NCBI GenBank assembly: GCA_025463515.1
Contig: JAODAQ010000053.1
Location: forward strand, 62,735-126,734
DNA from: Rhodoglobus sp.
Lineage (GTDB): Bacteria; Actinomycetota; Actinomycetes; Actinomycetales; Microbacteriaceae
Length of the DNA: 64,000 nucleotides
Direction of reading: 5' to 3'
Shown: piece after piece, positions 3,029-52,942 of the stretch
Layout: the number at the start of each line of letters is the position of its first letter
How positions within the stretch are numbered: position 1 is the stretch's first letter
Program-made: the position numbers and the translations under genes
The notes under the pieces: generated by a model
Databases searched by the model: none
Told to the model about the DNA's origin: nothing
What the model saw: the letters and a program-made list of their open reading frames with translations, nothing else

Positions 3029-3807
3029 TGGGGGCCTCCCTTCAGGTACACGCCGTTGGGGTCGATCACTGTTCGCAGCAAGTGCAGCTCGTGCTCACTC
3101 GGCGGCGGAGTGGTGGGGAGGTCGTCCGGGCGGTCGATGTCGAAGCCCGTTGCGGCCTCGACATCCGCCCAGGTGATCCCCTCGTGGAGCGACGTCGCGT
3201 TCATGCGCTTGGTCGTCGCGTCGAAGCCGAACACCCCGAGGTCGGTGACGACGCCGATCGGCCCGCGGCCGTGCAATCCGGCTGCCTCGCGCGCTCCGGG
3301 ACCCGTGAGGTACCCGGGGGTGGTCAGGTGGTCGACCCGCTCGACGAAGGTCCGCCGGGTGTGCCTGACGACGATCAGGAACTCCTTGGCGGCGCTCGCG
3401 ATGTCGTTCGCGCCGCCGCTGCCGCCGAGCCGGGTAGCGGGGCGGGAGTAGCCCTCTCCGCCGACCGCGGTCGAGTTGATGTTGCCGAACCTGTCGACCT
3501 GCGCGCCGCCGAGCACGCCGAAGTCGACGTTGCCCCCGTGCAGCAGCAAGAGGCCGTCGAGCATGCCCGAGACCCGCCGCGCGGTGGACTGCAGGCGCGG
3601 ATCGCCAACGGCCCGCGCGATGGTGCGGGGCTCGGCGGCGAGCACGCCGGACTCGAACATGAGGGTCATGTTCGGCGCGTGGGTGGCCTTGGCCAGATAG
3701 GCCGCCACCATGGGCAGGCCCGTGCCGATGAAGGCCTTCCAGCCGTCGTGGATGAATCGCCCTGTGGCGACCGTCATCATCTCGTCGCGTGTGAATTCGC
3801 CGCTCAC
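3025..3807 (-). CDS. CoA-transferase subunit B
   Basis: GTG start at 3807 (VSGEFTRDEMM...) forms a GTGA overlap with the subunit A stop. GGSGGANDIA and FESG motifs are typical of beta subunits. The long 511-aa track ORF is an artefactual extension. Confidence 0.75.
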   Translation of the reverse strand: MSGEFTRDEMMTVATGRFIHDGWKAFIGTGLPMVAAYLAKATHAPNMTLMFESGVLAAEPRTIARAVGDPRLQSTARRVSGMLDGLLLLHGGNVDFGVLGGAQVDRFGNINSTAVGGEGYSRPATRLGGSGGANDIASAAKEFLIVVRHTRRTFVERVDHLTTPGYLTGPGAREAAGLHGRGPIGVVTDLGVFGFDATTKRMNATSLHEGITWADVEAATGFDIDRPDDLPTTPPPSEHELHLLRTVIDPNGVYLKGGPQ

Positions 3808-8480: not shown

Positions 8481-8553
8481 TGGGCCCGGTGGGGCTCGAA
8501 CCCACGACCCGCGGATTAAAAGTCCGATGCTCTGCCAGCTGAGCTACAGGCCC
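8481..8553 (-). tRNA. tRNA-Lys (anticodon UUU)
   Basis: The reverse complement folds as a cloverleaf. Acceptor GGGCCUG/CGGGCCC, D arm GCUC..GAGC, anticodon loop CUUUUAA, T arm GUGGG-UUCGAGC-CCCAC, discriminator A. No encoded CCA. Confidence 0.9.
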
Positions 8554-12827: not shown

Positions 12828-12861
12828 ACGCGGTCGTCCGCCGCCGGGTCCGCGCGCATCC

Positions 12862-12938
12862 TTCGACACGATGCGGAGGTTTCGGCGACCGCATGGTGTC
12901 GAAACCTCCGCATGGGCGGACGGGCCGGCGCCCGAGAC
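12862..12938. repeat. Overlapping alternative hairpins (ATGCGGAGGTTTCG core) plus a conserved tail
   Basis: GACACGATGCGG/CCGCATGGTGTC and ATGCGGAGGTTTCG/CGAAACCTCCGCAT are mutually exclusive stems. The tail CCGCATGGGCGGACGGGCCGGCGCCCGAGA recurs at 41133-41165. Confidence 0.7.
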
Positions 12939-18165: not shown

Positions 18166-20342
<2,177 letters not shown>

Positions 20343-20365
20343 CCGCTAATCCTGCCACTGACGCG

Positions 20366-20382
20366 TGAACGCGCGATTAACT
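20366..20382 (-). promoter_or_regulatory. PHO-box-like direct repeat upstream of ppk1
   Basis: The minus strand reads GTTAATCGCGC GTTCACGCGTC (two 11-nt units), ending 24 nt upstream of the ppk1 ATG. Confidence 0.4.
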
Positions 20383-20395
20383 GGTACCACCGCCG

Positions 20396-20429
20396 GTTGA
20401 GTAGGCGCCCCGGCGCCGTATCGAAACCA
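20396..20429 (+). repeat. REP-A unit (forward)
   Basis: GGTTGAGTAG-GCGCCCCGGCGCC-GTATCGAAACC. Confidence 0.85.
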
Positions 20430-20612
20430 CAGCGGGACCCCGCGAGCCCGCGGGCAGCCGAGCTCTCCCGCGCGCCCGCGCCGCCGTGCGTCCCGGCGTC
20501 GACCCAGGCCTCGGCGCGGGCCTCCGTGCGGGCTCCGGCCGCCGTGCGTGCAGCCGTCGACCCAGGCCCCCGTGCGGGCTCTTGGCGCGGGCTCTTGGCG
20601 CGCCCGCAGCGC

Positions 20613-20671
20613 GTTCCGCCAACTCAGGACATTAGTGAGGAACCCCGCCTAATGTCCTGAGTTGGCGGAAC
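20613..20671. repeat. Perfect 23-bp inverted repeat with TCAGGACA core
   Basis: GTTCCGCCAACTCAGGACATTAG / CTAATGTCCTGAGTTGGCGGAAC with a 13-nt loop. Confidence 0.85.
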
Positions 20672-20727
20672 GAGCAAAGGTCGCGCCTGCGCCCCGACGC
20701 GGCCAGGCTGCTCTCGTTGAGGCCGCG

Positions 20728-21603
20728 CTACTGGGTGGAGGCGCGGTACTGCACGTCGATCGACCGCTGCGTGAAGCCGAAGGAGCGGTACAGCCCGAGC
20801 GCCGGGGCGTTGTCGCCTTCGACGTAGAGGTGGGCGGTCCGGATGCCGCGGCTCTCCAACCTCGCGAGCCCCGCCTCGACCAGCTGGCGCCCCAGCCCCT
20901 CGCCCTGGCGGTCGGGGGAGACGCCCACGACGTAGAACTCGCCCTCCCCACCCTCGACCTTGAGCCAGCAGTAGCCGATCAGGTCGGGGCCGTCCCACAG
21001 GAGGAGGAAGTCGTCCGGGTCGAACCACGGCTCGGTTGTGAGTACCTCGAGGTCGGTGCGAGTGACCGCGCCCTGCTCCGGGTGGGTGGCGAAGGCGCGG
21101 GCATTGAGGGCCACCCAGGCGTCGCTGTCGCTGGTTGAGTAGGCGCCCCAGCGCCGTATCGAAACCTCGCCCGGTTTCGATACGGCCGCAGGCGGCCTAC
21201 TCAACCCGCTGGGGGAGGCCGCGGGCGGCCTGCTCAACCCGCGGAGTTCGAGGTGCAGCAGCTCGCGCACGGCCTCGAGGCCGTGCGACGCGGCGAGGGC
21301 CCGCGCGGCGGGGTGGTCGCCGTGCGCCCAGAAGAGCGTGTCGCCTGCGGTGAGGAGGTGCTCGAGCATGAGCGTTCCGTGGCCCTCCGCGCGAGCATCC
21401 GGGTCGACGACGAATTCTGCCTCGCCGGACTCGCGCAGCGCTGCCGCCGGACCCAGCCACAGCAGCTCGCGGCTGCCGTTGGCGAGCGCGACGAGAGCGC
21501 CGTCAGAGAAGGGGGGCGAGCCGTCGGCGAGGGTGGCGCGACGGATCAGCCCTTCGAGGGCCTCAGGGCGCGGTTGCGGCGGGCGCGAGTCGCTCGGTGT
21601 CAT
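20728..21603 (-). CDS. mshD: Mycothiol synthase (acetyltransferase) MshD
   Basis: 291 aa with two GNAT halves. The C-terminal half has AFATHPEQG and [17 protein letters not shown] (acetyl-CoA site). It sits next to a glnR-like gene, as I recall for Mycobacterium. Confidence 0.8.
21133..21240. repeat. REP-A cluster (F + R + partial R) inside the mshD reading frame
   Basis: F at 21133-21166, R at 21173-21206, partial R at 21216-21240. Translated in-frame as [36 protein letters not shown]. Confidence 0.85.
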
Positions 21604-22258
21604 CGTCGTAGACGTTGAAGCGGTAGCCGACGTTGCGGACGGTGCCGATGAGCGACTCGAGGTCGCCGAGCTTGGCGCGCAGGCGCCGCACGTGCACGTC
21701 GACCGTGCGGGTGCCGCCGAAGTAGTCGTAGCCCCACACCTCGCTCAGCAGCTGCTCGCGGGTGAAGACGCGGGACGGGTGGGTGGCGAGGAAGCGGAGG
21801 AGCTCGAACTCCTTGAAGGTGAGGTCGAGCGGGCGGCCGTGCACCTTCGCCGAGTACGAGGCCTCGTCGATGACGACGCCGGAGGCCTGGATCTTGGAGC
21901 TCGAGGAGTCCTGCGCCTGGCGGCCGAGGGCGAGGCGGATGCGCGCGTCCGCTTCGGCGGGGCCGGCGGAGGCGAGGATGACGTCGTCGACGCCCCAGTC
22001 CGCAGAGACCGCGGTGAGGCCGCCCTCGGTCAGGATGAGGATGAGCGGCACGTTCACGCCGGTGGTGGTCAGGATCTTGCAGAGGGACTTGGCGCTGGCC
22101 AGATCCTGCCGGGCATCGACGAAGATGAGGTCGCAGCTCGGCGCAGAGATGAGCGACGCGGGCGACGCAGGGATCTGCTTCGTGGTGTGGCTCAGAAGCC
22201 CCAATGCGGGAAAGACCTCAGTGTCGACCGCAGAGGTCAGGATCAACAGCTGCGCCAA
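21563..22258 (-). CDS. glnR: Orphan OmpR-family response regulator, GlnR-like
   Basis: Winged-helix C-terminus ([52 protein letters not shown]). The receiver lacks the N-terminal acidic pair. TTG start with a GGAGG SD site. Confidence 0.7.
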
Positions 22259-40820: not shown

Positions 40821-41132
40821 GGGAGCTCCTTCCAGGCTTCACGCATAATTTCAACAAATCGCGTGCCGCGTAAAAAGGGCTTGACGGATGCTCGCGCGCC
40901 TGTTTCAGCGCCCCTCCCCTCGTGCGCGCTCGACCCGCTTCGCGAGCCTCAACAAGTGAGGCCTGCGAATGCTCGCGCGCCCGTTTCGGCGCGACGCTCC
41001 CGCGCCGGCAGGCGCATGGCGCCGAAAGGGGCGCGTGGGCGGATCGGGACGCCCCGCCGCGCCGCCCGCGGCGCCCATGCGGAGGTTTTGACGCGATGCT
41101 GCTGCCGCGGCATCCGCATGGGCCCGAAAGGT

Positions 41133-41165
41133 CCGCATGGGTGGACGGAGCCGGGCGCGCGAGAG
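41133..41165. repeat. Copy of the CCGCATGGG(Y)GGACGG...CGAGA element
   Basis: About 28 of 33 nt match 12908-12938. It is preceded by CATGCGGAGGTTTTGA (compare 12870-12884). Confidence 0.6.
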
Positions 41166-41184: not shown

Positions 41185-41218
41185 GGTTTCGATACGGCCG
41201 CGGACGGCCTACTCAACC
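41185..41218 (-). repeat. REP-A unit (reverse)
   Basis: GGTTTCGATAC-GGCCGCGGACGGC-CTACTCAACC. Confidence 0.85.
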
Positions 41219-41224
41219 CGCCGG

Positions 41225-41258
41225 GGTTTCGATACGGCCGCGGGCGGCCTACTCAACC
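41225..41258 (-). repeat. REP-A unit (reverse), tandem with the previous unit
   Basis: GGTTTCGATACGGCCGCGGGCGGCCTACTCAACC, identical to 52909-52942. It ends 2 nt before the phoU stop. Confidence 0.85.
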
Positions 41259-43917: not shown

Positions 43918-44004
43918 GGTTGAGTAGGCCGCCCGCGGCCGTATCGAAACCCAGTAAGTCGCACTACCGGTTTCGATGCAGGCGCCAGAGCGCCTTACTC
44001 AACT
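43918..44004. repeat. REP-A inverted pair (F 43918-43951, R 43969-44004)
   Basis: The pair fills the whole convergent gap between the regX3 stop and the lipoprotein stop. Confidence 0.85.
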
Positions 44005-44006
44005 CG

Positions 44007-44513
44007 CTAGCGCAGGATCTCCGGCGGCAGCAGGTCTTTGTACTCGGGGTGGTTGTCGGCGTTGAGCACCGGAACCAGGAGCTCCTTGCCCTCGTTGTCG
44101 CCGTACTGGAAGTAGACGGGGAGCAGCCCGCCCGCCTCGACGCCGGGGTTCAGGATGATGATCTGCGTGTCGTCGGGGGAGGTGCCGTAGGTAGCGACGT
44201 CGCCCGCGCGCACCGACTTGGTGATCGTGGTCTTCTCACCGCCGGACTGGTACTGCACGTTGACGTTGGCGATCTTCGAGCCCGTGTTCACGAACGTGAC
44301 CATGAGGCTGATCGCGTGGCCGTCCTTGTTGATGAGGGCCACGGCATTGCGGACGGCGACGTTGCCGACCTCGGTGCCGATGCCGTCACTGGGGTCGTAC
44401 TGGATAAGCGTCGCCTGCTGCGCGATGAAGGTGCAGCCGGTTGTGCCGATAAGCAGGGCACCGGCCAGGACAACGGATGCCGCGGCTCGGGCGGCGGCTG
44501 AGCGAGCTATCAC
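44007..44513 (-). CDS. Lipoprotein (LpqE-like by position)
   Basis: Signal peptide with lipobox TTGC and a beta-rich body. It sits upstream of carD, as I recall for lpqE in Mycobacterium. Confidence 0.65.
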   Translation of the reverse strand: MIARSAAARAAASVVLAGALLIGTTGCTFIAQQATLIQYDPSDGIGTEVGNVAVRNAVALINKDGHAISLMVTFVNTGSKIANVNVQYQSGGEKTTITKSVRAGDVATYGTSPDDTQIIILNPGVEAGGLLPVYFQYGDNEGKELLVPVLNADNHPEYKDLLPPEILR

Positions 44514-44531: not shown

Positions 44532-44601
44532 GGTTGAGTAGGCCGCCTGCGGCCGTATCCAACCCGGTTTCGATACGCGCGCCAGAGCGCGCTACTCAAC
44601 C
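44532..44601. repeat. REP-A inverted pair (F 44532-44564, R 44566-44601)
   Basis: The pair lies in the divergent promoter region between the lipoprotein gene and carD. The R unit is identical to 49379-49414. Confidence 0.85.
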
Positions 44602-46342: not shown

Positions 46343-46470
46343 GTACTTCCGGGGCGCTCCTCTCCCTCCCCCCGCGGGCCTAGTGGGGTGCCGGGTTGCC
46401 GGCCGGACGCCCTGCCCTGCCCGGCCGCCGCCGCTCGGTGTGCCGCCCCCGCCCGGCCTGCCAGCTCCGG

Positions 46471-46523
46471 CCCTGCCCGGCCCTGCCCAGCCCTGCCCAG
46501 CCCGGCCCAGCCCGGCCCGGCCC
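46471..46523 (-). repeat. (CCCNN)11 pentanucleotide tract (G-quadruplex-prone on the minus strand)
   Basis: Eleven consecutive CCC runs separated by 2-nt spacers (tg/gg/ag), embedded in a ~240-nt C-rich low-complexity tract (46385-46620). Confidence 0.85.
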
Positions 46524-49343: not shown

Positions 49344-49414
49344 GGTTGAGTAGGCCGTTCACGGCAGTATCGAAACCAGGTTTCGATACGCGCGCCAGAG
49401 CGCGCTACTCAACC
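49344..49414. repeat. REP-A inverted pair (F 49344-49377, R 49379-49414)
   Basis: The pair fills the convergent gap between rlmB and the amidohydrolase gene. Confidence 0.85.
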
Positions 49415-52716: not shown

Positions 52717-52753
52717 GGTTGAGTAGCGCCCTCTGGGGGCGCGTATCGAAACC
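52717..52753 (+). repeat. REP-A unit (forward)
   Basis: GGTTGAGTAG-CGCCCTCTGGGGGCGC-GTATCGAAACC. Confidence 0.85.
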
Positions 52754-52773
52754 GGTGGCGTGACTGCTTCTGT

Positions 52774-52855
52774 GCACTATTCAGGACAGTTGGGATCGGC
52801 CGTGCCGGTCAAGCGCTGAACGGCGACGGTTGACGCGGCTCGTCCTGAATTGTGC
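52774..52855. repeat. TCAGGACA-family hairpin
   Basis: GCACTATTCAGGAC / GTCCTGAATTGTGC (one mismatch) with a 54-nt loop, nested between REP-A F (52717) and R (52909). Confidence 0.75.
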
Positions 52856-52908
52856 GCGGTGTTGGCGGCGGATGGTGCCGAGGCGCCGCGAGCCCCTCGC
52901 GCGGGCAC

Positions 52909-52942
52909 GGTTTCGATACGGCCGCGGGCGGCCTACTCAACC
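52909..52942 (-). repeat. REP-A unit (reverse) overlapping the MFS gene stop codon
   Basis: GGTTTCGATACGGCCGCGGGCGGCCTACTCAACC. The CTA at 52933-52935 is the transporter stop codon. Confidence 0.85.

Follow-up and report, generated by a model that had tools for sequence, protein, structure and literature searches.

Palindromic repeats translated in frame at the hinge of an actinobacterial mycothiol synthase

The stretch of DNA analysed here (the window, 64 kb from a Rhodoglobus sp. genome of the Microbacteriaceae) contains an intact mshD gene, which encodes mycothiol synthase, and a family of repetitive extragenic palindromic (REP) units that we term REP-A. Two complete REP-A units and part of a third lie within mshD itself, where the minus strand of 21133-21240 is translated as residues G122-T157 of the protein, at the hinge between its two GNAT domains. 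The gene and the repeats inside it are laid out as follows.

20728-21603, minus strand: mshD, an uninterrupted open reading frame (ORF) of 291 aa (ORF list, TIGR03448, Pfam GNAT, Foldseek match to 2C27, conserved gene order)
21133-21166, minus strand: complete REP-A unit in the sense of the gene (exact pattern match; residues 147-157)
21167-21172, minus strand: 6-nt spacer of the head-to-head pair (GGGCGA in the sense of the gene; provides codon G145 together with most of E146)
21173-21206, plus strand: complete REP-A unit antisense to the gene (exact pattern match; residues 133-144)
21217-21239, plus strand: partial REP-A unit of 23 nt (stem-loop GGCCGCGGGCGGCC and tail TGCTCAACC, head missing)
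21127-21208, minus strand: REPIN-like long hairpin in mshD mRNA or single-stranded DNA (RNA fold, stem of ~33 bp)

The identity of the gene is supported by profile, structure and context. Against the TIGR03448 equivalog profile the ORF scores 211.3 bits (cut-off 163.1) and covers positions 13-294 of 294, and Pfam places a GNAT domain at residues 189-277, in the C-terminal part of the protein. The closest solved structure by sequence is Mycobacterium tuberculosis MshD (1OZP/2C27; HMMER, E = 3e-29), and a Foldseek search with an AlphaFold model of the window protein returned the same entries as top matches (2C27, TM 0.81; 1OZP, TM 0.73), with the tandem-GNAT fold of Rv0819. Residues E222 and Y272 align with Glu234 and Tyr294 of the mycobacterial enzyme and are invariant across 29 homologues, as is the acetyl-CoA (AcCoA) motif R/Q-x-x-G-x-G, present in the C-terminal domain as RQGEGLG. 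Tyr294, the equivalent of Y272, serves as the catalytic acid. Glu234 is the proton acceptor, and the C-terminal GNAT domain of the mycobacterial protein comprises residues 151-315 (PMC4964394). The window protein resembles M. tuberculosis MshD (Rv0819; PDB 1OZP, 1P0H and 2C27) in its tandem-GNAT fold, its catalytic Glu and Tyr and its AcCoA P-loop motif, but differs in that the mycobacterial hinge is ~10-14 aa of native sequence (141-150) whereas in the window protein repeat DNA encodes the hinge together with β-strand 1 of the C-terminal domain; the N-terminal domain of the window protein is also somewhat shorter. The gene order glnR-like response regulator, mshD, ppk, nudix, pstSCAB is conserved in orthologous loci. 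The first 41 nt of mshD (21563-21603) also form the 3' end of the glnR-like regulator gene upstream, and an overlap of 29-47 nt occurs in every orthologous locus examined.

REP-A units were located with the pattern GGTTTCGATAC-N10-18-TACTCAACC or with a relaxed version that allows up to 2 mismatches per flank. The exact pattern occurs 11 times in the window, compared with 0.00 in 100 shuffles, and the relaxed version yields 13 units. Each is a GC-rich stem-loop of 31-37 nt; the 10 units outside mshD look intergenic on an approximate gene map based on GC content at third codon positions, several of them lying a few nucleotides from stop codons. On the strand complementary to the pattern, the units read GGTTGA-GTAG-GCCGCC..., with GTAG directly beside the stem. 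Four head-to-head pairs are present in the window, including that in mshD, with 0-17 nt between units. In public genomes the stems between these flanks vary widely. A set of 40 distinct 35-nt units was examined: 99.1% of the cells in their four variable stem pairs are paired, and double changes occupy 68 cells where shuffles give 20.8, a value not reached in any of 500 shuffles. Because the stem pairs covary across these 40 units, the unit is maintained as a hairpin. The common C-T-N-C-G loops were rejected as UNCG tetraloops, which would have implied selection at the level of RNA, since pairing makes 3-nt loops closed by C-G; with such loops, and with G-U pairs rare, there is no evidence for a constraint on RNA over DNA. 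Rfam holds no family matching REP-A, either for the whole window at gathering thresholds or for 20300-21700 at E <= 10 (a search of the window gave one tRNA, at 8481-8553, and otherwise chance-level matches), and a literature search with the REP-A motif strings returned primers and unrelated matches only.

Both complete units in mshD match the family head (11 nt) and tail (9 nt) exactly, and each has an extragenic counterpart that is identical but for one base. The partial unit has one mismatch in its tail (TGCTCAACC), is read as (G)LSRPPAA (residues 122-129) and was also recovered as a member, at 64% identity, of a repeat family D1 at 21202-21246. The antisense unit is closed in two of its three frames (GGT TGA; G GTT GAG TAG), and the gene uses the open one, GG TTG AGT AGG; the sense unit, open in all three frames, codes for the first β-strand of the C-terminal GNAT domain and the turn after it, as judged from the AlphaFold model and the HMMER alignment. 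RNA folding of 21120-21250 on the minus strand gave a minimum free energy of -77.7 kcal/mol (z = -4.69), a stability that no shuffle out of 200 equalled. The REP pair was considered as an internal terminator and dropped, as a promoter and terminator scan of 20300-21700 found nothing. A first-pass annotation, made from the sequence alone, had described REP-A elements translated in frame and without a stop inside the 291-aa ORF, one unit facing one way and a full and a partial unit facing the opposite way. The translation of 21133-21240 matches that description exactly, and the pattern matches and the sequence agree with the arrangement; the 108 nt it gave include the 6-nt spacer and 10 nt between the full and the partial unit.

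The same annotation had located the segment at the linker between the two GNAT halves and treated residues 122-157 as an insertion that preserves the frame. Its placement is borne out: HMMER aligns the REP segment with residues ~138-158 of the mycobacterial protein, covering the linker 141-150, and the model has a loop at 122-149. Measured between the conserved anchors ...LLHLE and DAW..LNARAF, the hinge is 39 aa long in the window protein, 18 aa in L085 (P0022), the closest REP-free relative with DNA (APVRHFAETLRESGFHAD), and 19-27 aa in most Actinomycetes, where it carries the motif P..LP[DE]G[VS].[VIL]R.F.PG. An equivalent linker in orthologues that lack REP-A had been named as the observation that would count against an insertion; the REP-free orthologues have different linkers, mostly of 18-27 aa. 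In the HMMER alignment, REP-coded VSIRRWG is matched with VVIRTYA of the mycobacterial enzyme, within PDGVVIRTYA at the start of the C-terminal GNAT domain. The AlphaFold model, built from a 29-sequence alignment, has a mean predicted local distance difference test score (pLDDT) of 87.7 and a predicted TM-score (pTM) of 0.81, and places residues 109-121 in a strand, 122-149 in coil, 150-154 (RRWGA) in another strand and those from 157 onward in a helix; pLDDT falls below 50 at 126-134 and 141-147 and averages 95 at 151-160.

The native hinge DNA is gone, and we therefore infer that it was replaced, together with β-strand 1 of the C-terminal domain, and not that 36 aa were cleanly inserted. The suggestion of an insertion thus stands insofar as the segment is REP-derived, but not as a clean addition of 36 residues to an otherwise native linker and strand; the net gain in the hinge would be ~12-21 aa. 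A loop is modelled for residues 122-149 but not for the last ~8 residues, which are modelled as ordered. The ~28 REP-coded residues of 122-149 probably form a floppy, disordered surface hinge, and the last ~8 (RRWGAYST) appear to take the place of the native β-strand 1 and turn, mimicking the native V-x-I-R-x-[FY] / A-Y-T-P motif. By way of comparison with miniature inverted-repeat transposable elements, which are 70-300 bp long and have terminal inverted repeats and a target-site duplication, the REPIN-like dimer is symmetric and 74 nt long, and no target-site duplication is visible, the original junctions having been lost through replacement.

Outside the hinge, comparisons with REP-bearing orthologues gave ratios of nonsynonymous to synonymous substitution (dN/dS) of 0.12-0.23 (dS 0.29-0.60), and the comparison with the REP-free L085 gave 0.23 (dS 0.65). 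The reading frame is kept in at least six independent assemblies. By these measures purifying selection acts on mshD outside the hinge. In view of the low dN/dS and of the invariant E222, Y272 and RQGEGLG, we judge the REP-bearing gene to be functional, and its product probably still makes mycothiol. Of the two outcomes that the first-pass annotation had offered, a tolerated linker expansion is favored by these data and by the retention of the repeats in diverged orthologues, and an inactivated synthase is not. Two long-read metagenome-assembled genomes (MAGs), L015 and L024, which are the closest genomes in the species collection, were left out of the comparison: their mshD hinges (3319-3379 and 3346-3403, respectively) are not a multiple of three, so that the two halves lie in different frames, as a result either of long-read indel errors or of real pseudogenes.

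The history of the insert can be followed in close relatives. In a neighbor-joining tree built without the hinge, L081 (P0002), L082 (P0004), L084 (P0003) and P0001 cluster with the window protein (bootstrap 92). The REP-A junctions in this clade are identical, LHLE-x-R followed by GGTTGAG at one end and TACTCAACC followed by x-x-[DA]-DAW at the other (L081, L082, L084); L083 has the same junctions and L086 a decayed version. The hinges are composed as follows.

Window: partial unit, antisense unit, 6 nt, sense unit
L081: partial unit, antisense unit, 12-nt spacer, sense unit
L082: remnant, antisense unit, 12 nt, sense unit, extra partial unit
L084: antisense unit, 12 nt, sense unit

Between members of the clade, only 3-4 of the 68 positions in the two units (~5%) are different, compared with a dS of 0.29-0.42 for the gene, and the 6-nt spacer of the window and the 12-nt spacers of L081, L082 and L084 are unrelated in sequence. 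By the dS of the gene, the REP-A insert is old in the clade, and comparison of the hinges shows that the cluster has since been remodelled through gain, loss or decay of units and through the change of spacer between 6 and 12 nt. As the REP-coded peptide lies in a predicted disordered loop, the conservation of the units points to a constraint on their DNA (or RNA) and not on the peptide; its source may be homogenization with other copies, binding of a repeat-specific protein, or function. REP-A also reaches the other end of the gene in some relatives. In L081 (10870-10905), L082 (10883-10916) and L083 (10877-10912) a unit overlaps the 3' end and stop codon of mshD, so that the protein ends on residues read from the unit and stops at the TAG or TGA within it (RVE-stop or AG-stop); mshD of L329 ends in AG-stop, as in the gene ends supplied by REP-A.

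Beyond this clade the hinge is occupied repeatedly. REP-A hinges fall in three separate places of the tree: the window's clade; P0006 with P0015 (bootstrap 76), where L086 is a decayed copy; and P0005, alone in a group with P0012 and P0013 (bootstrap 100). The genes behind this last group (L083, L329 and L330 for P0005, P0012 and P0013) are nearly identical in DNA over long stretches on either side of the hinge and carry three unrelated hinges: REP-A, a native-like PEALEG...ISRAS, and a different palindrome, GGTCGAGCGAAGCCGAGAC...GATCTCGACTCCGCTCGATC, read as LVERSRD...ISTPLDH. The LVERSRD palindrome is found in the hinges of both L207 and L330, and a related motif in that of L008. A second family, GGTCTCGACAAGCTCGACC (read as VSTSST), sits in the hinges of L010, L206 and L208, and a collection-wide scan found it widespread and often arrayed in Actinomycetota (>120 stretches); within their own loci (2.4-21 kb), the hinges of L206, L207 and L208 share no 12-mer with the sequence outside the hinge. 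Among other Microbacteriaceae, the L005 hinge contains a perfect palindrome with 19-nt arms, and the hinges of L001 and L005 contain tandem repeats. In all, this second palindromic family and probably a third occupy the MshD hinge in other relatives. Outside mshD, a scan of 86 high-GC loci with 161 REP-A units turned up one convincing intragenic copy. The mshD hinge could be a preferred target, or it could be a rare survivable site at which a resident REP draws further REP events; short-tract recombination between alleles may also contribute to the recurrence. A search with a 50-aa synthetic REP-peptide query gave no protein match at E <= 1 and was uninformative.

The one intragenic copy, at L113 4487-4521, contributes GFDTRAERATQP in frame to an SMC chromosome-segregation protein, in which VDLSGLSSAE(x)S(x) is repeated four times in tandem beside the REP-A unit. 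In L329 an 18-mer of the hinge, CCTGAGGCTCTCGAAGGG (gene positions 364-381, read as PEALEG), is also present at the gene's own codons 15-20 (43-60); the starts of the two GNAT halves may have exchanged sequence by gene conversion, or the 18-mer may have been duplicated within the gene.

Taken together, these data make it very probable that a REP dimer and a fragment of a third unit were fixed in frame in the mshD hinge, where they replaced the linker and are tolerated in an enzyme that remains active. A head-to-head, REPIN-like pair with the fragment would have come from the GTAG-tagged palindromic family that is common between genes in this genome, and its DNA would have replaced the native hinge of 18-27 aa instead of adding 36 aa. 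Residues 122-149 would loop out and RRWGAYST would assume the role of β-strand 1, with mycothiol still being made. The units would be kept near the family consensus by homogenization with other copies or by binding of a repeat-specific protein, and the hinge would be a place where such elements repeatedly survive or land.

A more specific model, to which we assign a small chance, treats the MshD hinge as a dedicated site of recurrent integration or exchange of several unrelated hairpin repeat families across the Microbacteriaceae, with the REPs actively maintained there and co-opted, both as a core β-strand of the catalytic domain and as a ~33-bp mRNA hairpin that would couple translation to two-domain folding or expression. 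If it were correct, mobile palindromes would act as interchangeable protein-linker cassettes under selection. The broader proposal that the intragenic REPs are kept and not merely tolerated, because the hairpin, a REP-bound protein or a new property of the peptide serves mshD (for example, as a translational pause between the domains, in control of mRNA stability, or as a gyrase or nucleoid-protein site), has in our view a slim chance. It draws on the slow change of the units, some 6-8 times slower than synonymous sites (5% against dS 0.29-0.42) next to a spacer that is free to change, on the very stable REPIN hairpin (-77.7 kcal/mol, z = -4.7), and on the palindromic elements that occupy the hinge in many relatives. 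However, the repeats found in the hinge come from families with no sequence relationship, and close relatives still have the REP-free native hinge, which argues for tolerance rather than a specific requirement. Furthermore, nothing resembling a terminator or promoter was found between 20300 and 21700, the conservation of the units is equally explained by homogenization within the repeat population, and the very low model confidence of the REP-coded loop is as expected of an unconstrained linker.

It is very unlikely that mshD is inactivated or decaying, with hinge and β-strand 1 destroyed by the REPs and the open frame a mere remnant. The native strand and linker sequence are indeed gone, and the hinges of L015 and L024 are out of frame, but the dN/dS values from ~230 codons and four REP-bearing orthologues (dS up to 0.57), the frame kept across assemblies, the invariant catalytic and AcCoA-binding motifs, a score above the TIGR03448 equivalog cut-off and a confident two-domain model all speak against decay. 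Misjoining by an assembler that was confused by multi-copy REPs, in a comparison set that is mostly metagenomic, has a negligible probability: both halves of mshD stand in frame around REP-A in independent NCBI, JGI and ENA assemblies with lineage-specific differences, the 98%-identical protein P0001 has the same hinge, and an open frame with both conserved flanks intact is not what a misjoin would produce. Equally negligible is a native hinge that resembles REP-A by chance or convergence, with no insertion at all, for although REP-coded VSIR...AY(S/T) looks like native V-[SV]-I-R-x-[FY]-x-P in the corresponding position, two 34-nt stretches match the REP-A head and tail exactly, each is one base from an extragenic copy, and the hinge DNA of REP-free orthologues is unrelated.

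Several points nevertheless weigh against a tolerated REP replacement in an active enzyme. Repeated re-insertion or gene conversion, instead of selection, could explain why the units have diverged so little, and REP-A in three clades could stem from an ancestral insertion with losses, from independent insertions, or from short-tract recombination. The alignment given to AlphaFold has native strands at the columns of the REP-coded strand, which may inflate its confidence there. MshD activity is deduced from sequence conservation and the model only, and the window spans only 64 kb, so a second copy of mshD could exist elsewhere in the genome. Finally, the term REPIN, like the mobilization it implies, is applied here on architecture alone; a RAYT or other mobilizing enzyme was not searched for, and a single-copy RAYT gene is unlikely to lie in a window of this size.

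In-frame intragenic REPs are already known as a phenomenon. The GTAG tag defines one of two REP superfamilies (Di Nocera, De Gregorio and Rocco, 2013, BMC Genomics 14:522; PMC3733652), and more than half of the in-frame intragenic GTAG/CGTC REPs described there are dimers or groups that code for 20-30 aa; some genes are hit recurrently in different species, and the hosts highlighted are DNA repair and replication genes, not mshD (PMC3733652). REP-A resembles these elements closely, both being 20-40 bp GC-rich palindromes with GTAG by the stem, often in inverted dimers, mostly intergenic near the 3' ends of ORFs and occasionally in frame within a gene. The present analysis adds three features that the paper did not look for: the REP-coded β-strand, the replacement of a hinge, and the near-identical alleles with different cassettes. 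The text of PMC3733652 mentions neither Actinobacteria nor Leifsonia nor Clavibacter, and four REP-A motif fragments were not found in it. Classic REPINs, mobilized by RAYT transposases in Pseudomonas and enterobacteria, are described as extragenic (Bertels and Rainey, 2011, PMC3116915; PMC3337134); the pair in mshD has their two inverted REPs, short spacer and single long hairpin, as do the window's other head-to-head pairs, but it is intragenic.

The first-pass annotation had likened the insert to Rickettsia palindromic elements (RPEs), the classic example of in-frame palindromes. These are ~100-150 bp long, occur only in Rickettsia and each encode a conserved peptide (PMC10969869), and they lie in frame, at fold-compatible positions, in genes that are thought to be functional (PMC10969869, PMC3733652). 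The analogy holds for behavior, both being palindromic repeats read in frame in a presumed functional gene, but not for membership: the present units are 34 nt, clustered, only rarely intragenic and hosted by a high-GC actinobacterium of the Microbacteriaceae, and are set apart by both size and host, the in-frame GTAG/CGTC REPs being closer. Within the literature searched, the host lineage, the host gene, the REP-coded strand and the replacement of a native hinge appear to be new, as do the occupancy of one hinge by several families in several clades and the near-identical alleles that differ only in their cassette.

The locus illustrates that REP palindromes can persist in frame in an actinobacterial housekeeping redox enzyme over a divergence of dS ~0.3-0.4 without signs of decay in the host gene, and it suggests that repeat DNA can come to encode ordered structure (a β-strand) and not just a loop. 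The near-identical mshD alleles with native, REP-A and other palindromic hinges constitute a natural experiment on the tolerance of a tandem-GNAT hinge and on REP turnover at a single locus. In annotation, an unusual peptide like VSIRRWSAYST in a protein from an actinobacterium is a sign of translated REPs.

Outside mshD, the REP-A units of the window are distributed as follows, in each case by pattern match and gene map.

20395-20428, minus strand: unit nearest to those in mshD, between the mshD stop and the ppk start
41185-41258, plus strand: two tandem units between genes
43918-44004, both strands: head-to-head pair between convergent genes
44532-44601, both strands: head-to-head pair between divergent genes
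49344-49414, both strands: head-to-head pair between convergent genes
52717-52942: two units, at 52717-52753 (minus strand) and 52909-52942 (plus strand)

The unit at 20395-20428 belongs to the stem subfamily GGCGCC, as does the gene-sense unit in mshD. The region from the mshD stop to the ppk start also contains a large hairpin (20597-20687; 39-nt arms, 87% complementary, 13-nt loop) and, just upstream of it, two 52-nt direct repeats (20470-20579); in L081-L083 the mshD-ppk spacer carries 2-4 REP-A units in place of the window's hairpin and direct repeats. A REP-flanked ORF at 44007-44513 was considered as a RAYT and rejected, since by eye it looks like a small secreted or lipoprotein-like protein and not a transposase.

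REP-A is not confined to the Microbacteriaceae. In the window and in loci L087-L205, the exact flanks GGTTTCGATAC ... (C)TACTCAACC, with variable, covarying stems, extend beyond the family to Propionibacteriaceae, Chloroflexota/Anaerolineae and low-GC (42-48%) Treponema MAGs. An architecture common to several phyla suggests a conserved, horizontally spread recognition protein. Within the window, a second, unrelated palindromic family (ATGCGGAGGTTTCGGCGACCGCATGG...) is present at 12854-12931 and 41059-41136, the two being 72% complementary over 78 nt, and short GC-rich tandem repeats (GCCCNGCCC...) run through 46445-46519.

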